Shown piece by piece: positions 1 through 25,021 of a DNA stretch of 64,000 nt (within the stretch, counting starts at the first letter, position 1; each line of letters starts with the position of its first letter). Below the pieces are notes generated by a model. That model had not been told where the DNA came from. It was given only the letters and a program-made list of their open reading frames with translations, and ran no database searches. The position numbers were made by a program, and so were the translations under genes. This DNA comes from a virus, in the IMG/VR virus record IMGVR_UViG_3300011116_000796, positions 1-64,000 of that record. One strand, written 5' to 3'.

Positions 1-10
1 TCGCAGAGGA

Positions 11-3000
11 TTGAGTCTGAAAGAGGACTTTGGGCTTTTATCAGAAGCACCCAAGACAGACGATGTTACCATTCTTGCTCTCACATCCTCCGAAAAGGAT
101 TTAAGTGACACCATAGAAAAGACTGAAGCGATCTGTAAGAGGCGCAAGATTGAATTCTATCCTGTGAAGACATCGAAAGCACAGGTGGAAATATCGAATG
201 TTGCTTCAAAAAAGATCACTATAAAGAATTACGATGGAGAAGGTAAAGATGTAACCATCATTCCAGAGAACACAGTCGCAATCGTTCGTGGTGGCGTGAT
301 GAACACCGAAATCGGTGTAGCCATCATGACTATTCTACAGAATAATGGCGTGTTCATGGTCAATGAAAGAGCGGGTATGGAACTGTGTGCCAACAAGTTG
401 GAGACAGCCATCGCTCTCAAGAAGCATGGCCTTCCTCACCCACGCACAGCATTCGTTGCTAACGAAGAGAACATCGAATCGGCTGTCAAGGAAGTTGGTG
501 GTAAGTTTCCAATCATCTGCAAGACACTTACAGGAGCAGAGGGTATCGGGGTATCTAAGATTGAGAGCATGGAAAGTCTTAAGTCTGTACTTCAGACTCT
601 ATGGAAATATGGTGCAGAGATTATCATTCAGGAGTTCCTACCTGAATTCAAGAATGATGTTCGCAGCATCGTCCTCAACGGAAAGATATTTGCATGTGCA
701 AAACGAGACAAGGCACCTAAAGATTTCCGTACCAACATCGCCCGTGGATCAAAGGGCGGATCACATCAGTTATCTGAGGATGAAGTCAAACTAGTTGAGC
801 AAGCCGCACGGGTCAGTAAATGCTTTTATGTTGGCATCGACCATGTTATTAATGATGGCAAGCCCTACATCATTGAAATGAATGCAAGTCCTGGAAGTGG
901 TAACATTTATTACCGCTATTACGAAGATGGTAAGGGTAAAGACAATGTCAAAGGCGAAGAACTTGTAGAGGACTTCGTAGAGTACATTCTCAACAAGGCG
1001 AACTGGAAACTCTTCTCCAATCTAGCCGTCCGTGAAACTGTCAAGGTTGATGGTATCGAATACACGGCAAAGATCGACACAGGCAACAGTGGTTACAATA
1101 TGATTCATGCTGAAGACATCAAGGATAATGGAGACCACACAGTTTCATTCAAGACCATGGATGGCAAGAAGGTCACCAAGAAGATCATCAGTCGAATCAA
1201 GGTCAAGAGCGGTATCGGTGAGAAGGAAAGAATCGTTGTGTTCATGGACATTGAGTTTCATGGTAAGAGATACCCAAACATCAAGTTCAGTCTCGGTGAT
1301 CGAAGCCACATGTCAACCAAGATTCTTCTTGGATTACGATTCCTTGAGAAGACAGGATATGTAGTCGATCCTGCAAATGCAATATACCCACAACCTGATT
1401 CGAAGAAGAATTCAGTTGGAGAAGAGGAAGAAGAAGAGGAATTGCTAGAGGCTATAATTAAGGGGAAATCAAATGTTGCTGGTGCGGTCTTTCGGGTGAT
1501 GCGTAACCCCGAGACAGCAAAGAAGATAGTCGAACTCTCTAAACTCTGGAAATCAGGTTCAAGTGAGTTTAGCAAGAAGTTTCAAGATCTGAAGCAGGAG
1601 ATCGTTGTTGACTACCACAAATCTTTGAACGCAGGGGCATCAGTTGCTTTGTTCATTGACCGATTCAAGTTACAGAAGGTCATTGAGAAAATCATGTACA
1701 AAATGCTTGAAGTTGGTGGTGACTTGGGGGCATATTCGGGAAAGTTGGCTTCCGTTCTTGGTTCGCAATTGACTATGGGCGATTCGGTCGATGGGGATTC
1801 TCTGCATGAAGCCGATGTCACTAAGGGAAAGAAGTTCCACACAAAGAGCGGGAAAATTAAGCCATCACCAAAAGACAAGAAGACAGGACTCCCAAAGAAG
1901 TATGTCTCTGGATTGTCGAAGCGAGAAGCAGAACTACGAAAGAAGCGGCTTGCAAAAAGAAAAGGAATGTCCGATGATGATCCTAAGACTTGGGAGTTTG
2001 TGAACCCTAAAGAAAAGAAGATCAAGACCAAGCCTTCGAAGTACACGACCGCTTTCAAGAAACTAGCCAAGAAAGGTAAGTTGAAGGCACTCAAGAATGA
2101 ATATGAAGTGAATGAGGCAATTGCAGCAATTGAAGCCTTCGAAAATCTTGACTACAGAACTCGCATGGATAGAGCAATCATGCTTGAACAGAAGTCAATT
2201 GAGAAAGGTAAAAAGGATGCTGCATCTGTTTATCGTTCTTTCATAGAGTATGAGAAGCAAATACAATACAGTAAGTATGACATACAAACTGACATGCAGG
2301 AGGAGATCGAATACTTACTGTACGAAGTAAGTCCACCGTCTGGCCCTGCTCGTCGCTTCTCAAAGAAGGAGAAGATCAAGAAGGAATTCCAAAAGCGTTA
2401 CGGTAAGCGGTGGAAAGAAGTGTTCTATGCAACTGCATGGAAGATGCACAACGACTCCTTTGATCCAGAGGTCAATATGGTCGAAGCCGCAATTGATAGA
2501 CTCTATCTCTCGCTAGAGGAAGGTGCATGGGATTGGACTGCAAAAGAAAAGCGTGGCCCTCTGAGTGTTGGTACAGACGAGATAGTCAAGACATACCGTA
2601 AAGATACTCCAGGTGAGAGAGAGCGATTGGGTGAGGAGAAGAGTGACGAGGAAAAGGATGCTCTCTATAAGGAGTGGCAAAAACTCGTAAACATGTCGGG
2701 CAAAGAGATTCAGTCTTTCCTCGACTCTGATGAAGGTAAAGAAGCGGGGCTTTCCCGTAAAGAAGCAGGCAAGGCAGGATCCGGTGGCGGAAAGATCACC
2801 AGTGGAAGAGATTCTGCCCGTGCTATCATTCGTATGCTTGACACACCAAAGGAAAAGTGGACGGCAAACGATTGGAAATGGGCTGGCAAGCAAGTCAGTT
2901 TCATCAGTCGTATGAAGGGGGCTAAGGGACCGACTAGGGACGATAAGGGTCGGCCCACTCGCAAACTGCTCGCCCTCAAAGTTTGGGGCTACAATCCGGA

Positions 3001-3013
3001 GAAGAAATCATGA
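11..3013 (+). CDS. rimK: Multidomain (probably 5'-truncated) protein: RimK-type ATP-grasp ligase + RimB/PF05618-like retropepsin protease + poly-Glu linker + DUF5824-like + DUF3140-like domains
   Basis: ATP-grasp motifs (CANKLET, GLPHPRT, FPIICKTLTGAEGIGV, IIQEFL, DVR, DFRTNIARG, GIDHV, IEMNASPG); protease motifs AKIDTG...FSLGDRSHMSTKILLGLRFL..VVDP; C-terminal LVNMSGKEI...SGRDSARAIIRML...LKVWGYNP resembles DUF3140. The frame is open to the window edge, so the TTG at 11 may not be the true start. Confidence 0.8.
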   Translation: MSLKEDFGLLSEAPKTDDVTILALTSSEKDLSDTIEKTEAICKRRKIEFYPVKTSKAQVEISNVASKKITIKNYDGEGKDVTIIPENTVAIVRGGVMNTEIGVAIMTILQNNGVFMVNERAGMELCANKLETAIALKKHGLPHPRTAFVANEENIESAVKEVGGKFPIICKTLTGAEGIGVSKIESMESLKSVLQTLWKYGAEIIIQEFLPEFKNDVRSIVLNGKIFACAKRDKAPKDFRTNIARGSKGGSHQLSEDEVKLVEQAARVSKCFYVGIDHVINDGKPYIIEMNASPGSGNIYYRYYEDGKGKDNVKGEELVEDFVEYILNKANWKLFSNLAVRETVKVDGIEYTAKIDTGNSGYNMIHAEDIKDNGDHTVSFKTMDGKKVTKKIISRIKVKSGIGEKERIVVFMDIEFHGKRYPNIKFSLGDRSHMSTKILLGLRFLEKTGYVVDPANAIYPQPDSKKNSVGEEEEEEELLEAIIKGKSNVAGAVFRVMRNPETAKKIVELSKLWKSGSSEFSKKFQDLKQEIVVDYHKSLNAGASVALFIDRFKLQKVIEKIMYKMLEVGGDLGAYSGKLASVLGSQLTMGDSVDGDSLHEADVTKGKKFHTKSGKIKPSPKDKKTGLPKKYVSGLSKREAELRKKRLAKRKGMSDDDPKTWEFVNPKEKKIKTKPSKYTTAFKKLAKKGKLKALKNEYEVNEAIAAIEAFENLDYRTRMDRAIMLEQKSIEKGKKDAASVYRSFIEYEKQIQYSKYDIQTDMQEEIEYLLYEVSPPSGPARRFSKKEKIKKEFQKRYGKRWKEVFYATAWKMHNDSFDPEVNMVEAAIDRLYLSLEEGAWDWTAKEKRGPLSVGTDEIVKTYRKDTPGERERLGEEKSDEEKDALYKEWQKLVNMSGKEIQSFLDSDEGKEAGLSRKEAGKAGSGGGKITSGRDSARAIIRMLDTPKEKWTANDWKWAGKQVSFISRMKGAKGPTRDDKGRPTRKLLALKVWGYNPEKKS

Positions 3014-3270
3014 AAGAATATAACGATCTAATTCAGAACATCACGGAGGCTCGTATTGCGGCTTTAGAAAAGAAAGCAAAGCAAAGCGGAATCTCGTATG
3101 GAATTCTAAAACAAGTTTATGATAGGGGTATGGCTGCTTGGAAAGGTGGTCACAGACCCGGTGCAACAAGTCATCAATGGGCCTTTGCCCGTGTAAATTC
3201 CTTCATTGTCGGCGGAAAGACCAGAAGAACTGCTGACAAGGATTTGTGGAAGAAAGCAAAGGGCAGTTAA
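3010..3270 (+). CDS. Small basic DUF5824-like protein (putative head-internal protein)
   Basis: GISYGILKQVYDRGMAAWKGGHRPGATSHQWAFARVNSF motif; ATG at 3010 overlaps the upstream stop (ATGA), a better start than 2983. Confidence 0.7.
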   Translation: MKEYNDLIQNITEARIAALEKKAKQSGISYGILKQVYDRGMAAWKGGHRPGATSHQWAFARVNSFIVGGKTRRTADKDLWKKAKGS

Positions 3271-3322: not shown

Positions 3323-6300
3323 ATGTCACAAACAGAACCAGCGAATATTTATCTTTGGGTCGGTGGATACACAGGACATACTGGACAACATAGCGGTTGG
3401 ACTAACGGTGGAATTGCATCGTCAAATGGCTATTGGATAAACTGGGCAGATGGATCTACTACCGATAAAGGAGACTTTTCTTATAGCCCTTATTGCTGGA
3501 ATTTTCCAGAAAACTGGGTGCTTTATCACCCACCTGTAATATCAAGTGACCAAGGTAATGATATCAATACGACACAGACTCCAGGTATCTTTCCTGGATT
3601 CTCTCGGGCCTCCTCAATTCCAGGTGCTAGAGATAGAGCAATTTTTGACGCTAATGTTTCAGGAGTAATTAAAGATATTACTCTCTATGCTGATACTAGA
3701 ACAGGAATTCGTCCTGATATAGCACAAGCATGGAAAAATAAATTCCGTGCTGCCGGTTGGTATGCTTTCGCTACTACACCAGTAAATTTTTCAAATCAAC
3801 CAAATAGTGCCTCTCCAGGAGGGCTTTTTGTCCCATATGCATTCCCTTATAGAATTTCTTGTTTGTTCGGTGGATTGTCTGGCGATGGATATACTCATGG
3901 AACAAATCCGAATCCCGAACACTATCAGAGACAGTTAAACCCAACTGCACTTGCAAAAACTCTTGGACTTTATGGTCAAGAAGGCCATGATGACATGAAC
4001 GTATTTTATGAAGGTGTACACAGTAATGTTAATATGGGTGATCCTACATCCTCGGAATCTAGATATCACTGGTTCCCAGAAACTCCAGGAAATCCGGCAC
4101 CCGCAGGAGCAGATTCAAGATTTGATGGAAGAGGAAATAAAAATACATACTACGCACCTTTAGAATCCATCAGAATTGGATATGCATACCGAAAAAATGG
4201 TATCGGTGCTGGATCGAATGTTTATTATGCCCCCGGCACACCCGTTAGTTTAGTCCCACATATGGTGGTTCCTCTACCAAAATCTGGATGGGCTGGAATT
4301 GGTGTTGCTAGTCCTATGTCCTGGCCTTCAGTATTCAATCGAACGGACTGCGCTACATACTATAATGGAAACCAAGCCTTTCCTCCGAACTGGCCTGGTT
4401 TTCAGGGAAGTTCTATTAGTTCCCCCATCCCACCAAATCTTCCGGCATCGTCATCATGTGGTCCTAAGACCTACAGTAAAGGAATTCCTGGTTGGCATAT
4501 GCCTGGAGCAACACTCGGATCGGGAAGTGATTTGCTACAGTTTGTAACCCCTGACCTACCAAAACACCCACTTGGATTCCGTCAGGGAGAAATCGGTGTA
4601 CCACTTCCAACAGAATACAAAAAAGATTGGAACATGTCTAGTGGATGGCAATCCCTGAATATTACTGGTGGCGATATTGATGGCAACAGCGGCGTAGTAT
4701 TCGAAGGATCAACAGCAGCATTCTATCGAAATTCACAATCTTGGTTCAAAACACACATACCTGGAATTGGATTGCGAGTGAGAGCGGACGAAATTATTGT
4801 TAATGATCATGCATGGAGAAATGGTTATACTGCAAATTCTCTAAACGATGGAGCAAATATCAATATTCATGCTGTGCCATTTGACAGTAGATACCTCGGG
4901 GGAACTGCTGGCCTTCAATCGACAAATTGGAATACAACAAATGTTCTTGGAACCAGATTCCTTTCTACATCAAATTTCCAAACTGCTGTTAGATTGCCAG
5001 TTTGGTGGCAGTGGACATCATGGGGAATGCTGGGTGGCGATGGCCCTTATGGATCTGGATTTCAGGCACCTCCAGAGGGTAGAGCGGCGGACTGGTATTC
5101 TCTCCGACAACTCTTTGCACCACAAACCAGTGGGACCACTTATCTCAATACAAATAAGTGCGATGTTCTTCCGCCATTAGGACAGAACGGGGGACCGACT
5201 GGACCATGGCTCTCATCAGGATCGCATCAAATGCTATTGAGCGGATATTGGGGAACTATCACTAGTAAATCGGGATATTTGTCTGTGATTGGAGCAACTG
5301 CTTCCGTTGCAACAGGAGTAACTTCGTCGTATATTAAAAATTATGAGTGTGGAATAAATATTAACAATGAGCAATTTATGGATAATTTAGGGGCTGCGGA
5401 CCCCGCCAATTTTAGTGATTATGCACGCATTTGGAATGGAAGTAACACTGAATGGTGGGCTAAGAAGCATTTGTTCTTCTACTATCCATACACTAATCTA
5501 GGAACAACAGGTTCATTGTCAGAACCAACTAATTCCGCTGGAACACCAATTTTGTCGCATCTCAGTTTCCCTGCAAATTGCGTTGGTGCATTTATATCAA
5601 ATACAAATTTCGGCCATTTAAATATTGGTGTTAATGATGCAAAGTTCGATAGTTCAATTCGTCAAACCTTTAGATCGAAAACACATCTAATCAGGAGTGG
5701 CGTAAAAGTTTTAGATGGAGCCAGAACGCTATTTGCAAATGAAGACGGAAAATTTGTACGGGATCTAGTTTCAAGCGATGGAATTCAAGTATCTGGTTGG
5801 GAGACAATGTCTCCTTCGAACTGCCTGATGATTGGCACATTCGATAATAATTATGGTAATAAACCAGTTTATGCAAAGAATTTTACTACGCTAGAAGCAC
5901 ATTTGAACATGACAGCACAGAGTGAAGGTGTTGGAGTTGATGAAAACATCTCTCTGAACATGAAATACAACATGGGACCGATTGTTCGTATGGGTGGGAA
6001 TTTATATGTGAACGAAATTCGTGCAAATGGTGGGTACGTTGGAGTGCATCCAAATGCATCAGGACCAATTTCTATACTAGATGGTTATGTTGAAGGACCG
6101 ACTCTTCTTGATTTGAACTATAAATCCAATAGTTCTGGATTTGGATTGACATCTAATCAGAATGCTTTGATACTTGGTAACAGCAATGAAGGATCAGGAA
6201 TTAAGGTAATCAACACTAACATTCCAAGTAATTGGTCGGGAACTACTGGTGCGCCGGTCATGTATAGCGCAGATGAAAATGTTTCTATCTACGGATACGG

Positions 6301-6433
6301 TTCAATTATCTGCGATAGTGTTAGATTAGCAGAAGGAAAGGTCAGAATTATTCCTGATAGTTACAATGCATATAGAATTCGTGATGAAATAAAGGGTGCG
6401 ACGGCATCAGCCCACTATAGTAGTCCAATCTAA
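3323..6433 (+). CDS. Large Gly/Trp/Asn-rich putative virion protein (paralog A)
   Basis: 1036-aa ORF, late promoter upstream; N-terminal YLWVGG...W...ENW...P...D.AIF and ISCLFGG.SGDG shared with the next ORF. Confidence 0.6.
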   Translation: MSQTEPANIYLWVGGYTGHTGQHSGWTNGGIASSNGYWINWADGSTTDKGDFSYSPYCWNFPENWVLYHPPVISSDQGNDINTTQTPGIFPGFSRASSIPGARDRAIFDANVSGVIKDITLYADTRTGIRPDIAQAWKNKFRAAGWYAFATTPVNFSNQPNSASPGGLFVPYAFPYRISCLFGGLSGDGYTHGTNPNPEHYQRQLNPTALAKTLGLYGQEGHDDMNVFYEGVHSNVNMGDPTSSESRYHWFPETPGNPAPAGADSRFDGRGNKNTYYAPLESIRIGYAYRKNGIGAGSNVYYAPGTPVSLVPHMVVPLPKSGWAGIGVASPMSWPSVFNRTDCATYYNGNQAFPPNWPGFQGSSISSPIPPNLPASSSCGPKTYSKGIPGWHMPGATLGSGSDLLQFVTPDLPKHPLGFRQGEIGVPLPTEYKKDWNMSSGWQSLNITGGDIDGNSGVVFEGSTAAFYRNSQSWFKTHIPGIGLRVRADEIIVNDHAWRNGYTANSLNDGANINIHAVPFDSRYLGGTAGLQSTNWNTTNVLGTRFLSTSNFQTAVRLPVWWQWTSWGMLGGDGPYGSGFQAPPEGRAADWYSLRQLFAPQTSGTTYLNTNKCDVLPPLGQNGGPTGPWLSSGSHQMLLSGYWGTITSKSGYLSVIGATASVATGVTSSYIKNYECGININNEQFMDNLGAADPANFSDYARIWNGSNTEWWAKKHLFFYYPYTNLGTTGSLSEPTNSAGTPILSHLSFPANCVGAFISNTNFGHLNIGVNDAKFDSSIRQTFRSKTHLIRSGVKVLDGARTLFANEDGKFVRDLVSSDGIQVSGWETMSPSNCLMIGTFDNNYGNKPVYAKNFTTLEAHLNMTAQSEGVGVDENISLNMKYNMGPIVRMGGNLYVNEIRANGGYVGVHPNASGPISILDGYVEGPTLLDLNYKSNSSGFGLTSNQNALILGNSNEGSGIKVINTNIPSNWSGTTGAPVMYSADENVSIYGYGSIICDSVRLAEGKVRIIPDSYNAYRIRDEIKGATASAHYSSPI

Positions 6434-6469: not shown

Positions 6470-8971
6470 ATGGCAACATTTTACTGGATAGGCGGATTCA
6501 CCGGACACACAGGCTCCAATAGTGGATATGACGTTGGTCGTAAAATTTGGACTAACTGGATGACTGGAGCAGAAAATACAGAGGGTGATTATGTCTATGG
6601 TCCATATGCATGGGACATCAAAGAAAACTGGCTTGAACTTGATGAATTTGAAACTAGATTGCAAGCAGACGAATATGATGGTCAGAATCCAAGCCCTACT
6701 CTTTCTGTAGTAGAAGCAACGAGATTTCCAGGACAGAATTTGACTGGTGGGAATGATGTCGCTGTTTTCGGAAGATTCCATGGAAGAATGTGGAGATATA
6801 GATTGGATCCCGTCACAGGAAAACCGACATCTGTTGCTGAGGGGAAGGATTGGTATTGGCATGATATTGGAAACAACATTTCTTGTTTATTCGGGGGAAT
6901 ACAAGGAGATGGATTTACCGCTAGTGGTTTAACAGCCACAAGAGCAGGGCAAACATCAGGAATTTCTCTTATTGTGGAGAGAAACTGGATTAATGGTGCA
7001 GATATTCTTCATCCAACTATAATTGGACAGCAGTTGTCATCCTCAGATATTGCGTGTGCGGAAAGACAAGATCACTCCTGGGCAAATCCCATGAGATTCA
7101 TCCCGACTGATGTGGAAGGTAAACTTGCTGACTTTGTGCCAATCGTTAGTGCGGGTTGTGTCAAAGGACGCCTTGACGAGCGTCCTCCTCTGTTTGGAGT
7201 AGTTGATGGTAGTCACTATAGAGCGAATAACTGGACTGCTATTTACGGAAATCATGCCAATCAGTTCAGAACTGGCGAAATTGGTTTAATTAAAGATAAG
7301 AAGTATAGCGTAAGACCAGACAGTATCAATACTGCGGGAGCAACCGGAGCAACATCTAATTCAACATGGTTACACAAATTTGGTCACGTTCTGAAAGGTA
7401 CTCAACTGAATCTTCGGTGTGCAAATATCACATCAATCGATAAACCTGGCAGAGCCGCATGGCCGATGGCATTTGAATCGTTCTCAATTTTCAACGATAG
7501 TCCTGGTGGAGCCGGAACGTCAAGTACTATGCGTTATGGTAAAGTGGGTGGAGTTCCATATCAAAGAGGATATAATACCTCTGGTGTGCCAGGAAGAGTG
7601 ATCTGGGCATATGGAACAAACACGATTCAGAAGCCGAATCCAGTCGATCCAAACACCACATCCGATCTAAACGGTGTCTTCTGGAAAGAAGGTTATAAGG
7701 TTTCCAATAATTTTGTCATGGAAGAGTTTATCTGTATCAATAATGTGATGAACACGAATGAATTCACATTTGCCGATAACTTACCTTATACACAATCGTC
7801 AGGATTTGTGAAGATTATTAGAGAAGACGAAAGCGAATCACCAGCAAAATTTGCTTCTTTGCCCAATCCGAATGAGGGAGTACCATCAGCACATACCGAG
7901 GGTCCATACTCATCAACGCATGTTTCTGGCGACCCTGTAAAATACTACACATTTGCATGGCCTACCAATTATAATGCGTGGCAAAGAAAGTATTCAGGAA
8001 GATTTGTTCAACTGTCCGGAGAATGGGGATCCAGCACAGAAATTTCGTCAGCAAAAACAGAATTGCTGAATTTTAGTACCGAAAATTTGAAGATTCAAAA
8101 TGCTAGATCACATGGTGTATTTGTCGATAAAAATTCTAGTATGGCGAGTATAAAGATTGAGAAGAATAGGTACATGATAAACGGAGTTGAAATTGAAGGT
8201 AATGTTGGATCTCCACACACTCTGCAAAGTATAGAAATTAATGGTGGGTGGGAAAACCAAAGTCGCAAATATGATATCGGAACAATACCCGTTTCAAGTT
8301 CCGGTGGCTTGAATTTTAATAAGAAACCATATTGGACGGAAGCAAACAACAATGTTGACAACTGTGTAAAGATCGGACAAATCTATCAGACCACAGGAGA
8401 CAACATCATGCCTATCCCATCTTTGATCGTGAAAAGTGACAAAACATTTGCAGAGGAGTTGGGAAATCCAAATCAAACTTGGACTGATGAACGACTTTGG
8501 TTCAAACCGGGATTCAATCAGTCATTCACTCCAAATATTGTTGGGGCACCTATAGTTCGACTTGGATTTGTTCAGATAGATGATCTACAACTTCTAGGTG
8601 GAAATGTAAATGTTAGAACGGATAAGGTTCAATATCCGCCATCAGATTCAACTGCGGTAGATTGTGTGATTAGAAATGGAAATATCGCAGGACAGGGTGT
8701 TGCATTCATGATGGGTGATGTGAGAAGATCGAACGATTCAGTGAGTTCATCAGGAGCGGGGGCAAAGGGCGGCGGCGGCAGTGGAAGACAGGGAGTCAGA
8801 CAATTACTTGTTGGATTCTCACCTGAGGACAAAGGCATTGTGTTTGAACCTTCTCAAAGAGATTTCTGTGGGGGGGATTTCTTATTCGTGGCACCTTCAA
8901 ACCACACACTAAGAAATTCAGAAAGATATGCTTATATTACCAATAGTGGTTTAACTGCAACTGGAACCTAA
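6470..8971 (+). CDS. Large putative virion protein (paralog B)
   Basis: 833-aa ORF, TAAATA at 6431 and AAGGA SD; shares N-terminal motifs with 3323..6433. Confidence 0.6.
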   Translation: MATFYWIGGFTGHTGSNSGYDVGRKIWTNWMTGAENTEGDYVYGPYAWDIKENWLELDEFETRLQADEYDGQNPSPTLSVVEATRFPGQNLTGGNDVAVFGRFHGRMWRYRLDPVTGKPTSVAEGKDWYWHDIGNNISCLFGGIQGDGFTASGLTATRAGQTSGISLIVERNWINGADILHPTIIGQQLSSSDIACAERQDHSWANPMRFIPTDVEGKLADFVPIVSAGCVKGRLDERPPLFGVVDGSHYRANNWTAIYGNHANQFRTGEIGLIKDKKYSVRPDSINTAGATGATSNSTWLHKFGHVLKGTQLNLRCANITSIDKPGRAAWPMAFESFSIFNDSPGGAGTSSTMRYGKVGGVPYQRGYNTSGVPGRVIWAYGTNTIQKPNPVDPNTTSDLNGVFWKEGYKVSNNFVMEEFICINNVMNTNEFTFADNLPYTQSSGFVKIIREDESESPAKFASLPNPNEGVPSAHTEGPYSSTHVSGDPVKYYTFAWPTNYNAWQRKYSGRFVQLSGEWGSSTEISSAKTELLNFSTENLKIQNARSHGVFVDKNSSMASIKIEKNRYMINGVEIEGNVGSPHTLQSIEINGGWENQSRKYDIGTIPVSSSGGLNFNKKPYWTEANNNVDNCVKIGQIYQTTGDNIMPIPSLIVKSDKTFAEELGNPNQTWTDERLWFKPGFNQSFTPNIVGAPIVRLGFVQIDDLQLLGGNVNVRTDKVQYPPSDSTAVDCVIRNGNIAGQGVAFMMGDVRRSNDSVSSSGAGAKGGGGSGRQGVRQLLVGFSPEDKGIVFEPSQRDFCGGDFLFVAPSNHTLRNSERYAYITNSGLTATGT

Positions 8972-13601: not shown

Positions 13602-13871
13602 ATGGCAGACAATGATAACATCAACGAGAGTATCGATGAAAACGAGGAAACTGAAGAGATTGGCTTTGAGGATTCGGAGAATTCTCCTTTGTCAGATTCA
13701 GACATTGAGGAAAGTGAACATGCGACTACTGACATTCCTCCAGCGGACCTCATTGACTTAATCTCAAATCAGAAGGCAAGTGAAGCACGGTCTGAAATTT
13801 TCCGTGCCCTCTACAACAAGGTTGGAGAGAAAATCGAAGATATGAAGTTAGGAATTCGCAAAAGCGAGTAA
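13602..13871 (+). CDS. Small acidic protein, prohead-core (gp67-like) family candidate
   Basis: ATG 13602 after GGGAG and a late promoter; DLIDLI....ASEARSEI...LYNKVGEKIE resembles small T4-like core proteins. Confidence 0.45.
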   Translation: MADNDNINESIDENEETEEIGFEDSENSPLSDSDIEESEHATTDIPPADLIDLISNQKASEARSEIFRALYNKVGEKIEDMKLGIRKSE

Positions 13872-14628: not shown

Positions 14629-16905
<2,277 letters not shown>

Positions 16906-22871: not shown

Positions 22872-24269
22872 ATGTCAAAGCAAAGCACAATTCAACACTA
22901 CTTCTCGCTCACGCCCGCAGGCGTACCCGCAGGCGCAGGAATGACTTATGGTGAAATCGCTATCAATGTTGCTGACGAGAAACTGTTCATTGAGAATGTG
23001 AATGGTGATGTTATTTCTCTCTCGCAGACAAAGGATCTATCGGGAGCATTTGCACACTCTGATCAGGTTGTAACTTCGGTGAATGGTGCTACTGGTGCAA
23101 TTATAAATGTCGCATTCACAAATACTGCACAGACCTTTACAGGATTGCAGACCTTTGCCAACGGTATTACCGCTGTGGGCGGAACCTTTGGAAATATCTC
23201 AGCAGCGGGAGCATCTTTCAGTTCTGACATATTTGTTCAGGGTATTAGAGTTGGTAGGGGTGGTGCGGGAGATGCGAACAGCGTTGCCGTTGGCGCAGAT
23301 GCACTACCGGCAGGAACATTCAATGTTGCTATCGGAAAAAGTGCGCTGCAAGCAGCAGTTAGTCCAAACAACAATGTTGCAATTGGTTGGCAGTCTCAAA
23401 TGTCGGGAGATTCTCCAATCAACAATGTTTCTGTTGGTGCAAACTCCCTTAGATTCAATCAATTTGGTCAGGGTAATGTTGCCATTGGGTACGAGGCACT
23501 CTACACCACAAATAATAATGCAAATACAGCCGTAGGTTCTATGGCACTTCGCCAAACAACAACTGGATTCAGAAATACTTCAATTGGTAATGAATCTCTT
23601 TACAACAATACTCTAGGTGTTGCTAATGTTGCAATTGGTCATCAGGCAGGAAGATATCGTGGAGAGTTCACTCTATTTGACTTCCCCAATGATTTAGACA
23701 ACGAAGATGTTTCTGCGCTAACAAGAACAACAGGAACAGGCGGCATCTACATTGGTCAATGGTCGAGAGCATCTGCAAACGGAACCGTAAAAGAAATCGT
23801 GATTGGTGCAGAGGCACTTGGTCTCGGTTCAAATACGGCGGTGATTGGTGCAACTTCACAGGTTTCCGCAACCATTTACGGAACTTTGAATCTGCCAGGT
23901 GGGTTGAGTGCTTCAAGTGGAGCAACATTTAGTGGAACAGTTTCGTCTGACACTGGGTATAGAATTACCTCAAGTGCGATCAACACACAGACCGGAACAT
24001 CCTATTCGATAACGGGAACTGACAACGGAGAAATACTAACATTTAACAATGTATCGGCAACGACTCTAACTGTCCCTTCGGGACTCCCTATTGGATTCAA
24101 CTGCACTGTTATACAACTCGGACTCGGACAAGTTGGGTTCACAGCGGCAGCCGGTGTTACTCTCAACAGTTATGGAAATCTCATCAAGATTGCAGGACAA
24201 CATGGTGCTGCTACTTTGGTGTCCTATCAAAGTAATGTATACAATATTGCAGGAACATTAAGTACATGA
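22872..24269 (+). CDS. Distal fibre/adhesin with Mtd_N-like head and YadA/Hep_Hag-like NxAxG repeats
   Basis: MTYGEIAINVADEKLFI; NVAIG..AL, NTAVGSMAL, NTSIG repeats; C-terminal TLTVPSGLPIGF...YNIAGTLST. Confidence 0.7.
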   Translation: MSKQSTIQHYFSLTPAGVPAGAGMTYGEIAINVADEKLFIENVNGDVISLSQTKDLSGAFAHSDQVVTSVNGATGAIINVAFTNTAQTFTGLQTFANGITAVGGTFGNISAAGASFSSDIFVQGIRVGRGGAGDANSVAVGADALPAGTFNVAIGKSALQAAVSPNNNVAIGWQSQMSGDSPINNVSVGANSLRFNQFGQGNVAIGYEALYTTNNNANTAVGSMALRQTTTGFRNTSIGNESLYNNTLGVANVAIGHQAGRYRGEFTLFDFPNDLDNEDVSALTRTTGTGGIYIGQWSRASANGTVKEIVIGAEALGLGSNTAVIGATSQVSATIYGTLNLPGGLSASSGATFSGTVSSDTGYRITSSAINTQTGTSYSITGTDNGEILTFNNVSATTLTVPSGLPIGFNCTVIQLGLGQVGFTAAAGVTLNSYGNLIKIAGQHGAATLVSYQSNVYNIAGTLST

Positions 24270-25021
24270 TAATTCCGTCTTTCAAGGCGGGATATACTAG
24301 AGTACCCCGTCTTATTTCAACTACAAATATTACATCGACAGGAACACAAAATTATACTGTTCCTGCCGGGACAATTTATCTTGAGATAGAAATAGTTGGC
24401 GGTGGCGGTGGTGGTGGTGCAGGAAGAACACTAACTTCTGGAAGAAATACAAGATATCATGGTGGCGGTGGTGGAGGTGGCGGTGGTTATGTCAAATACA
24501 CATATCGTGGAAGTTTGCATGGCGGTTTCAAAGTAGGAGATACTTTGAGTTTTACTGTAGGAACCGCAGGAACTGCTGGTAGTGGAAGCAGTAGTGGAGG
24601 AAACGGCGGAAACAGCACACTTAACTCACATACGCAAAATTCCATCCCTCAATTGTTTCTAACTGTTCCTACTGGCGGTGGTGGTGGCGGTGGAGAAACA
24701 GAGTCAACATATAACACAACTGCTTCCGGTGGAGTAGCAGGAGTTGCTTCTAATGGAGATATCAATACAAATGGAAATGCTGGTTCTCCCGGATCTGCTC
24801 CTAGCGCATCTGCGAGTAACGGTGGCAATGGAGCATTGAATGGTGGTTCATCAACATTCGGTAACACTACTGTAGCATCAGGAGGAACATCGGGAAGTAC
24901 AGTAGGTGGAACAGGGACTCAGCCGGGTAATGGTGGTGGGGGTGGATATAGTTCATCTACATCGAATGCTAATGGTGGTGATGGTGGGGCGGGACAAGTT
25001 AGAATAAAGGCATATGGATGA
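24266..25021 (+). CDS. Glycine-rich fibre tip (gp38-like adhesin) protein
   Basis: YTVPAG...IEIVGGGGGGG...GGGGGGGGY...GGDGGAGQVRI; ATGA-coupled to the upstream gene. Confidence 0.7.
   Translation: MIIPSFKAGYTRVPRLISTTNITSTGTQNYTVPAGTIYLEIEIVGGGGGGGAGRTLTSGRNTRYHGGGGGGGGGYVKYTYRGSLHGGFKVGDTLSFTVGTAGTAGSGSSSGGNGGNSTLNSHTQNSIPQLFLTVPTGGGGGGGETESTYNTTASGGVAGVASNGDINTNGNAGSPGSAPSASASNGGNGALNGGSSTFGNTTVASGGTSGSTVGGTGTQPGNGGGGGYSSSTSNANGGDGGAGQVRIKAYG

Follow-up and report, generated by a model that had tools for sequence, protein, structure and literature searches.

The window analysed here, the first 64,000 bases (G000:C1:1-64000) of a 119,654-base viral contig from IMG/VR record IMGVR_UViG_3300011116_000796 (CheckV completeness 67%), opens inside a gene that joins a RimK-family glutamate ligase domain directly to a RimB-type aspartic peptidase domain and continues through a run of seven glutamates into a long, mostly basic region. 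We are almost certain of these domain identities and of the truncation of the window gene. Our preferred explanation, to which we give a probability of roughly 0.45, is that the window holds most of a late gene, without its 5′ part, from a marine T4-like myovirus and that this gene encodes a polyprotein that would be targeted to the phage head, with the prohead protease and its own peptidase both taking part in its processing. The evidence comes from the domains themselves, from a glutamate run whose length looks to be held by selection within its clade, and from T4-like leader and cut-site motifs in the family.

Extent and domains of the polyprotein

The reading frame is open from nucleotide (nt) 2 and ends at the stop codon at nt 3011-3013, giving 1,003 codons within the window (protein P0001). 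Residues are numbered here from nt 2, so that the numbers of an earlier, sequence-only reading of the same DNA, which counted from nt 11, are 3 lower. That reading had started the protein at the TTG at nt 11 and ended it near residue 480. The TTG is instead an internal Leu codon of a longer frame, which continues for about 520 more residues before its stop. The closest relative (P0002; 98% identical) is 1,214 residues long, and the window protein aligns with it from residue 212 onwards, an offset of 211; a locus 93% identical to the window gene has an intact frame of 1,215 codons. Relatives at 93-98% identity carry about 211 N-terminal residues beyond the window copy. These comprise a short leader followed by a domain resembling nucleotidyltransferases (GRMNPPTIGH ... 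SASKMR), for which PF01467 scores below its cut-off in the close relatives and above it in P0120 (27 versus 21 bits). When the opposite contig end was searched for the lost 5′ part by tblastn with the first 215 residues of P0002, the best match had only E = 0.56; the lost part does not lie there.

The ligase domain was identified by family models, profiles, and fold. PF08443 matches residues 131-301 with E = 3.9e-30 (105.3 bits; cut-off 21), and the NCBIfam model for the RimK family, TIGR00768 (rimK_fam), scores 148.2 bits against a cut-off of 143.4. A 37-sequence profile of the family matches the solved Pseudomonas RimK structure 7qyr with E = 1.1e-32, and Foldseek returned the Pseudomonas and E. 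coli RimK structures 7qys, 7qyr, and 5zct (E 3e-17 to 2e-16; target-normalised template-modelling score 0.79-0.85), the RimK–RpsF complex 5zk6 also being among the fold matches. Invariant in the 37 diverse sequences are K174, E180, G181, Q210, E211, D219, R221, the motif D241-F-R-T-N245, D280, E292, and N294, which we take to divide among themselves the nucleotide- and metal-binding roles of an ATP-grasp enzyme. Together, these results uphold the intact RimK-like ATP-grasp domain that the sequence-only reading had recognised. The NCBIfam equivalog for 30S ribosomal protein S6--L-glutamate ligase, NF007764, which gauges orthology to the E. coli S6 ligase, gave only 78.3 bits against its cut-off of 331, and we therefore place the protein in the RimK family, not as an S6 ligase. 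The second-best NCBIfam match was MptN, a cofactor glutamate ligase, at 119.7 bits against an equivalog cut-off of 350, and all the NCBIfam equivalog models for cofactor glutamate ligases stayed below their cut-offs, with this score or a lower one. To our knowledge, S6 is the only established RimK target, and RimK and RimB are the only known bacterial writer and eraser of polyglutamate tails on a ribosomal protein, a pair whose role is still being worked out.

Fused straight onto the ligase, as earlier described, is a retropepsin-like domain with a DTG motif, matched by PF05618 at residues 345-459 (E = 1.2e-9; 38.6 bits, cut-off 27). The family profile also matches the solved PF05618 chains 9g58 (1.1e-7), 2pma, and 9g59 (1.2e-6 each). 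In the AlphaFold model of the window protein, which has a mean predicted local distance difference test score (pLDDT) of 66.4, RimK residues 23-335 and the beta-rich peptidase fold at 343-451 are confidently folded, the peptidase domain with pLDDT mostly about 70-85. D359-T-G-N is invariant in 37 of 37 aligned sequences, and all 121 family proteins examined (P0001 together with the 120 best of 249 matches) contain the pattern D[TS]GN..YN. The DTGN motif and the ATP-grasp signature residues are thus all kept, and the claim that one chain carries both functions stands as far as the domains are concerned; the two activities themselves are predicted from these motifs. The RimB equivalog NF052261 gave 28.7 bits against 200 and the RloA3 model 39.2 against 210, and by these scores the domain is RimB-like, not a RimB orthologue. 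Its cleft residues K357, D359-N362, Y365, the basic residue 402 (K/R), L442, and G444 are identical in 16 rows with at least five consecutive Glu and in 19 rows with at most three; the chemistry of the cleft is therefore common to the whole family, and the Glu tract in cis is a one-clade addition.

The poly-glutamate tract

The acidic linker behind the peptidase contains the tract G-EEEEEEE-LLE-A (nt 1418-1453), which the sequence-only reading had also recognised. Under an independent-residue model (Glu frequency 0.0545 over 38,162 residues in open reading frames, ORFs), the expected number of seven-Glu runs in the contig is about 5e-5, and only two ORFs in the whole contig contain five or more consecutive Glu. 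Among the 121 family proteins, the longest Glu run after the peptidase domain is six or more in 37, five in 9, four in 20, and three or fewer in 55, and none of the 65 complete stand-alone RimK–peptidase proteins has a run of four or more. These counts confine the tract to part of a clade at least about 78% identical to the window protein; conservation in homologues, which had been proposed as a check, thus gave a mixed result.

Within its clade, the length of the run looks to be held by selection, judging from a codon comparison of 81 sources (the window and 80 loci), 67 of which were readable. The runs of six or seven Glu are written in at least 14 distinct GAA/GAG spellings, and a total of seven acidic residues is kept, since an Asp precedes the run where there are six Glu. 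The linker residues around the run differ between lineages.

According to Little et al. 2025, Pseudomonas RimB is a retropepsin-like endopeptidase with the catalytic residue D31 that cuts stretches of at least six contiguous Glu, whether they form a C-terminus or, in the case of an E8 linker, connect two domains (PMC11957791). We modelled two copies of residues 337-455 together with a partner of residues 458-495, in three runs and three controls, with an alignment of our own supply. The three runs scored 0.76, 0.76, and 0.75 and the best of the controls 0.02, with the verdict 'supports binding'; the score rates the peptide partner alone and leaves the dimer itself unscored. Of the solved complexes, 116 out of 157 reach this mark, as do 2 out of 215 mismatched pairs. 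At least 68% of the contacts were shared between runs, and the partner had pLDDT values of at least 49. Out of the 38 partner residues, the interface holds only 473-482, which contact D359, residues 361-365, the flap at 399-405, and residues 437-444 of both copies; the pairs of lowest predicted error include D359 of copy 1 with E477 and D359 of copy 2 with E478. In our view, the odds that the Glu run is a substrate-like ligand of the peptidase in cis fall slightly short of even. Indirect pointers to a specificity for runs of six or more Glu are the run in cis, its docking in the model, and the conserved basic cleft residues K357 and K/R402. The earlier proposal of a self-cut site within the tract is a prediction that gains from the six-Glu rule of RimB, from the selected run length, and from a model in which the run spans both catalytic Asp residues, and that loses from the restriction of the tract to one clade.

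The second ORF with a long Glu run lies outside the window and encodes a gp22-like scaffold (G000:C1:99909-101021; L004 2910-4022) with an E8 run, KKEMT-EEEEEEEE-LASE. Scaffold and polyprotein are likewise the sole ORFs with at least five consecutive Glu in G001, a 93%-complete relative. Scaffold homologues (80 loci, 19 of them without the anchor motif and left out) have E7-E11 at the same position in 46 of 61 cases and at most four Glu in 15. If scaffold and polyprotein share the prohead core, as hypothesised, each of them would bear a motif recognised by a poly-Glu peptidase. In a third genome, G003, no run of at least five Glu occurs in 248 ORFs, and both tracts are absent, so that the scaffold/polyprotein pairs read E8/E7 in the window's own contig, E7/DE6 in G001, and none/none in G003. 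Further records holding both genes were sought and not found (0/28 and 0/17), and the three genomes represent only two clades, so that shared ancestry explains the pairing equally well. We regard as a long shot the idea that poly-Glu chemistry is itself part of head assembly. The leader-targeted polyprotein would then be loaded into the head, and its RimB-like domain would be a second, poly-Glu-specific maturation protease that cuts or docks on the E7-E11 run of the scaffold and on its own E6-7 tract; RimK could extend the C-terminal Glu left by the prohead protease, and the injected enzyme would act on host proteins before phage gene expression.

Leader, cut-site motifs, and late-promoter motif

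Full-length relatives begin with leaders such as MKNFTQHITE/A, VKRFTEIVAE/A, and MLNFRDHTNTINE/A (the slash marks the candidate cut). The T4 capsid-targeting sequence is given as MKTYQEFIAE (PMC8442874), with positions 4 and 7 governing targeting and positions 8 and 10 governing processing (PMC9026906). The family leaders have in common with it K2, an aromatic residue at position 4, I/V at position 8, and E10, as well as M1 when the start codon is ATG. Among cultured phages, stand-alone RimK–peptidase fusions occur in Pelagibacter phage Mosig and Yersinia phage YerA41, and RimK without the peptidase domain is carried by the Melnitz phages (Methylophilales phages) and by S-RIM cyanophages. In the long forms, the leader precedes the nucleotidyltransferase-like domain; in 52 of the 65 stand-alone fusions (29-50% identity), it comes right before RimK, and it is also found at the N-termini of the Mosig fusion and of Melnitz RimK. 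Since it keeps its N-terminal place while the first domain changes, the leader appears to be portable and behaves as a signal, not as part of a fold. In G001, 6 of 206 ORFs carry it, compared with 0.81 ± 0.87 after shuffling (maximum 5 in 300 shuffles). The six ORFs lie in a cluster at 147-165 kb of that genome (G001:C1:146947-165493, minus strand), with leaders that include MKSFSQHITE/A, MQSFLAHITE/A, MKSYKDYISE/S, and MKTYFDLLQSIQE/A and with one Lys/Ala-rich basic protein; by sequence, their products are candidate internal head proteins.

Short motifs ending in Glu also mark the junctions between the domains. The T4 prohead protease gp21 cuts Alt at ITE-6 and LTE-619 and itself has LIE-9 (PMC5694885, PMC9026906). 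In the polyprotein family, an [LIVM]xE column is present at the N-terminus of the full-length relatives in 23 of 31 sequences, at the nucleotidyltransferase/RimK junction in two columns (32/35 and 30/35; flanking identity 0.36-0.44), after the Glu run in 24 of 29, and before the basic module that corresponds to the N-terminal half of DUF5824 in 15 of the 15 sequences that have the column (flanking identity 0.26). Ala follows the Glu in 14 of these last 15 and in 22 of the 25 Glu-bearing rows of another column. The columns sit in linkers of 0.26-0.5 identity, and all the conserved sites lie within stretches of the AlphaFold model with pLDDT below 50. Where a protein has a run of at least five Glu, an [LIVM]xE follows immediately in 39 of 46 cases. 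These sites, the leader, and the late-promoter motif described below are conserved more widely than the Glu run.

A protease that could cut at such sites is encoded further along the contig, where the gene for a T4-type head maturation protease (G000:C1:99227-99874; phrog_207, E = 4e-81) adjoins those for the scaffold and the major capsid protein. Judged by its gene set, the source genome is a T4-like myovirus, which bears out the phage origin assumed earlier: the window encodes UvsW, a gp55-like late sigma factor, a gp46/47-like nuclease, RNase H, ThyX, gp6- and gp48-like baseplate proteins, and a class II ribonucleotide reductase, and no tRNA genes were found in it.

T4 late promoters read TATAAATA. 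This strict form, TATAAATA, was sought up to 200 nt upstream of the polyprotein start and was found in 0 of 76 loci. In relatives, the polyprotein gene abuts or overlaps an upstream DUF6267 gene of about 400 codons (for example L010 4152-5366, plus strand; phrog_455), whose product has a KxDG motif and its own ML[SN]F...[LI]xE leader and is fused to the polyprotein N-terminus in P0120. Because the stretch upstream of the polyprotein is the end of this preceding gene, and because the head genes use CTAAATA, the motif [ACT]TAAATA was sought before the upstream gene. Of 32 distinct loci, 29 have it there, in most cases at a distance of 12-32 nt from the gene (background 0.042 per 120 nt). In the window's genome, it occurs 52 times on both strands, and 30 of the 117 ORFs have it no more than 60 nt upstream of their start (background 0.013 per 60 nt), including the collagen-like tail fibre, baseplate, scaffold, and capsid genes. 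From these positions, [ACT]TAAATA looks like this phage's late-promoter consensus, a CTAAATA/ATAAATA variant of the T4 motif.

A link between the family and virus particles comes from phage YerA41, whose 'g112 Ribosomal protein modification protein' is among 63 proteins that LC-MS/MS detected in purified particles (PMC7354516). The fusion protein YerA41_066 is named 'structural protein' in GenBank and was equated with g112 by gene order alone.

The features of the gene are collected in the table. The roughly 520 residues that follow the acidic linker are mostly basic; the C-terminal 400 residues have an isoelectric point (pI) of 9.7 and a net charge of +30, and the DUF5824-N module reaches a net charge of +13 per 40 residues. 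The other half of DUF5824 is matched by the next, small ORF, which has the leader MKEYNDLIQNITE/A and also matches the C-terminal end of phrog_3041 'cytidyltransferase'. Since the two halves match in separate places, DUF5824 seems to consist of two separable modules. The C-terminal helical domain is well conserved (mean column identity 81% in 27 sequences) and well modelled (pLDDT 82.5). Among viral folds, a single match was significant: a protein of a haloarchaeal tailed virus that is named 'prohead protease' (E = 8.2e-5, with TMq 0.69), a weak, model-derived hint of head association. A profile search against PDB sequences gave nothing significant for this domain (best E = 0.022, a tape-measure protein), and in a VIA-align comparison with 48,161 chains the highest Z was 5.8 (root-mean-square deviation 3.7 over 102 residues; 3td7, a mimivirus sulfhydryl oxidase), below the meaningful level for helical folds; the protein atlas returned only unnamed viral DUF3140 clusters.

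Features of the polyprotein gene and of the ORF that follows it (window coordinates; residue numbers counted from nt 2)
Feature	Position (nt)	Strand	Basis or remark
3′ part of a gene of about 1,214 codons	2..3013	+	5′ end lost at contig edge
Disordered junction between the lost nucleotidyltransferase-like domain and RimK, with candidate sites L6-K-E8/D and L13-S-E15/A	2..67	+	pLDDT <50, residues 1-19
RimK-family ATP-grasp alpha-L-glutamate ligase domain, residues 23-335	68..1006	+	Pfam, NCBIfam, profile, fold
RimB-type retropepsin-like aspartic peptidase domain (PF05618), residues 343-459	1028..1378	+	Pfam, profile, model
Catalytic motif D359-T360-G361-N362	1076..1087	+	D359-T-G at nt 1076-1084
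Disordered acidic linker, residues 454-491	1361..1474	+	pLDDT <50
Run of seven Glu (E474-E480), candidate substrate or pseudo-substrate for the RimB-like peptidase	1421..1441	+	sequence, codon, complex model
L481-L-E483/A484, candidate T4-type prohead-protease site right after the Glu run	1442..1453	+	conserved column
Helical 'module X', residues 489-587	1466..1762	+	helices in model; absent or replaced in shorter relatives
L601-H-E603/A604, candidate cut site before the basic DUF5824-N module	1802..1813	+	conserved column; pLDDT <50, residues 586-621
Basic module, N-terminal half of DUF5824, residues 631-691, below cut-off	1892..2074	+	PF19141 positions 1-55 of 127, 17.5 versus 25 bits
C-terminal helical domain DUF3140/DUF6321	2642..3010	+	PF11338 33.9 versus 25 bits (residues 891-982); DUF6321 below cut-off
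Small basic ORF, 86 residues from ATG 3010, pI 10.2; C-terminal half of DUF5824	3010..3270 (open frame 2983-3270)	+	PF19141 positions 60-126 of 127, E = 3.9e-19

Several other ORFs of the window deserve mention. Two large ones on the plus strand, at 3323-6433 (1,036 residues, rich in Gly/Ser/Asn/Thr/Pro/Trp) and 6470-8971 (833 residues), have no Pfam or PHROG match; both are preceded by CTAAATA and are therefore probably virion proteins. An extremely acidic ORF of 89 residues (13602-13871, plus strand; start MADNDNINESIDENEETEEIGFEDSENSPLSDSD...) lies between the primase and ThyX genes, with a late-type motif 25 nt upstream. The collagen-repeat, tail-fibre-like protein is encoded at 14629-16905 on the plus strand (PF01391, four stretches), and several large unannotated ORFs and a glycine-rich-domain protein (24266-25021) are located downstream of it.

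Competing explanations and known systems

Under the preferred explanation, the polyprotein would be made late and drawn into the prohead by its T4-like leader. The prohead protease would cut after Glu at [LIVM]-x-E/A sites in the disordered junctions and so release the nucleotidyltransferase, a RimK–RimB enzyme of about 52 kDa, and basic proteins. In the window's clade, the E6-7 run would lie in the cleft of the peptidase dimer, either as a self-cut site or as a pseudo-substrate. The RimK–RimB enzyme would then enter the cell with the DNA, like T4 Alt, and both add and trim C-terminal alpha-linked glutamate tails on some target.

A number of observations weigh against this explanation. The leader, the upstream gene, and the promoter of the window copy lie outside the window and are supplied by relatives. 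In the window's contig, neither N-terminal [LI]xE[AGS] (5/117 ORFs versus 3.1 ± 1.7) nor the leader regular expression (1/117 versus 0.54) is significantly enriched, and the latter is not significant in G003 either (3/248 versus 0.96). Among 107 full-length relatives, the strict form of this expression matched no more than 69, since the shorter MKTFSE/A is found in one large group and a few have no Glu there. The [LIVM]xE motif is short and common, with 34 occurrences in P0002 and 23.2 expected. As for the Glu run, it is three residues or shorter in 55 of the 121 family proteins and never reaches four in the 65 stand-alone forms; the low pLDDT of the modelled partner makes the partner's own fold uncertain, and the good score of the complex may echo solved retropepsin–peptide complexes. 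Given the far too low RimB equivalog score (28.7 versus 200 bits), the domain may not share the specificity that RimB has in Pseudomonas. The genes for ribonucleotide reductase and UvsW are likewise preceded by the late motif, and late expression alone does not mean packaging. YerA41 is not T4-like, and its particle list includes polymerases and ribonucleotide reductase (PMC7354516), so that carry-over is possible for its RimK protein. The short-form gene of Mosig lies among replication genes, beside regA, and the RimK of cyanophage S-RIM12 has no leader, which indicates that a phage RimK can act without one.

An alternative that follows the sequence-only reading is an unpackaged cytoplasmic enzyme that would be made during infection, free itself at the Glu tract, and glutamylate host S6, perhaps with its oligo-Glu end as a primer. 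We consider this unlikely, but it accounts for the intact RimK and RimB-type domains, agrees with the cutting of internal runs of six or more Glu by RimB and with the docking of the run in the modelled dimer cleft, and points to a known RimK substrate, with the RimK–RpsF complex 5zk6 among the fold matches. A translation-directed role was also put forward by Monier et al., and the leaderless cyanophage RimK shows that cytoplasmic phage RimK exists. Left unexplained by it are the portable leader, the late-promoter motif, the basic C-terminal modules, and the conserved [LIVM]xE/A at junctions that have no Glu run; moreover, self-release would depend on a tract that the same 55 of the 121 family proteins lack, as do the 65 short forms without exception, and the S6-ligase equivalog stays far from its cut-off (78.3 versus 331 bits). 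We rate as rather improbable the suggestion that the protein is a single uncut multi-domain enzyme. The Glu run would then serve as a flexible spacer of acidic character, and chance or structural reasons would account for the [LIVM]xE motifs and for the likeness of the leader to the T4 sequence. Acidic low-complexity linkers are indeed common, the excess of [LIVM]xE is the modest one given above (34 versus 23.2), the leader is significantly enriched in only one of three genomes, and many lineages shorten or lose the Glu run and yet keep the gene. However, the run length of six to seven survives synonymous change while the adjacent linker residues vary, the motif columns are conserved inside linkers of 0.26-0.5 identity and mostly have Ala next, the leader is found on unrelated first domains, and the complex model singled out the Glu run from 38 residues.

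The domain repertoire would also fit a biosynthetic assembly line in which the ligase-like DUF6267 protein, the nucleotidyltransferase-like domain, and the ATP-grasp domain make or modify a polymer or small molecule (poly-alpha-glutamate in free form, a cofactor with added glutamate, or a modification on nucleic acid) and the peptidase trims the product. The KxDG motif of DUF6267 resembles that of nucleotidyl-transferring ligases. The RimK family includes cofactor glutamate ligases, with MptN as the second-best NCBIfam match (119.7 bits), the DUF6267, nucleotidyltransferase, RimK, and RimB-type domains are fused in P0120 and encoded by adjacent genes elsewhere, and the thymidine of YerA41 is heavily modified. 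That modification is, however, described as oligosaccharide-like, the cofactor-ligase equivalogs all fall short (119.7 versus 350 bits and lower), and neither the leader nor the basic tail is explained, so that we consider such an assembly line very improbable.

The fusion as such is not new. In the GOS data set, Monier, Claverie and Ogata identified in 2008 more than 100 RimK homologues encoded by contigs of T4-like phages. Several of these homologues carry DUF785/PF05618 C-terminal of the ATP-grasp domain, and the authors proposed that they help to modify host translation; in the available text, the second domain is called one of 'unknown function', and leaders and processing are not treated (PMC2530865). 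RimB–RimK hybrids followed in 2025 with the RimBK protein of Desulfotalea psychrophila, a single chain that is proteolytically active, in a paper whose available part does not treat phage proteins (PMC11957791). What appears to be new here is the polyprotein context, the poly-Glu tract in cis, and the T4-like targeting marks, none of which we found in the limited literature collection searched; nor did that search return a paper tying phage RimK or RimB to virions or capsid targeting. Copies of RimK in phages have thus been known since 2008, with no mechanism offered beyond 'may affect translation'. If the enzyme is packaged in the head and injected, it would represent a new class of ejected host-takeover enzyme in abundant ocean myoviruses, comparable to T4 Alt, and the reach of the T4 capsid-targeting system would widen to include marine phages that are uncultured as well as proteins made as polyproteins. 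The Glu run in cis would be a natural counterpart of the poly-Glu 'cleavable linker' that the RimB authors made artificially, and it offers a simple, testable handle.

With the T4 internal proteins IPI-III and Alt, many relatives share a leader of about 10 residues that has K2, an aromatic residue at 4, I/V at 8, and, just before an Ala, E10. At both ends of the enzyme stand candidate cuts after the Glu of [IL]-x-E, as ITE-6 and LTE-619 do in Alt, a T4-type prohead protease is encoded in the same genome, and the companion proteins are basic, as the T4 internal proteins also are. There is no homology to the T4 internal proteins beyond the leader, and the putatively packaged polyprotein would release several domains from one chain, an arrangement that the available T4 texts do not describe. 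Closer in sequence are the stand-alone fusions of cultured phages: Mosig_00005 (461 residues) has the same RimK-then-peptidase order, matches residues 37-457 at 28% identity, and has a leader ending in LEE/A, and YerA41_066 (473 residues), the same kind of fusion, matches residues 90-458 at 29% identity. The stand-alone fusions of marine phages (about 460-500 residues) differ from the window protein in that they are without the Glu run, the nucleotidyltransferase-like domain, and the basic tail. With Pseudomonas RimK/RimB (RimABK) and D. psychrophila RimBK, the window protein has in common an ATP-grasp RimK-family ligase and a PF05618 peptidase with a DTG motif. The order here is RimK and then RimB, whereas the bacterial RimBK has its RimB part at the N-terminus. 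Unlike in the Pseudomonas system, there is no RimA, and the pair, whose activity here is predicted, forms part of a larger phage protein (about 1,214 residues) together with a nucleotidyltransferase-like domain, a poly-Glu tract in cis, and basic modules. That tract, seven contiguous Glu in the window, fits the substrate rule described for RimB, namely at least six contiguous Glu at a C-terminus or at an internal position.

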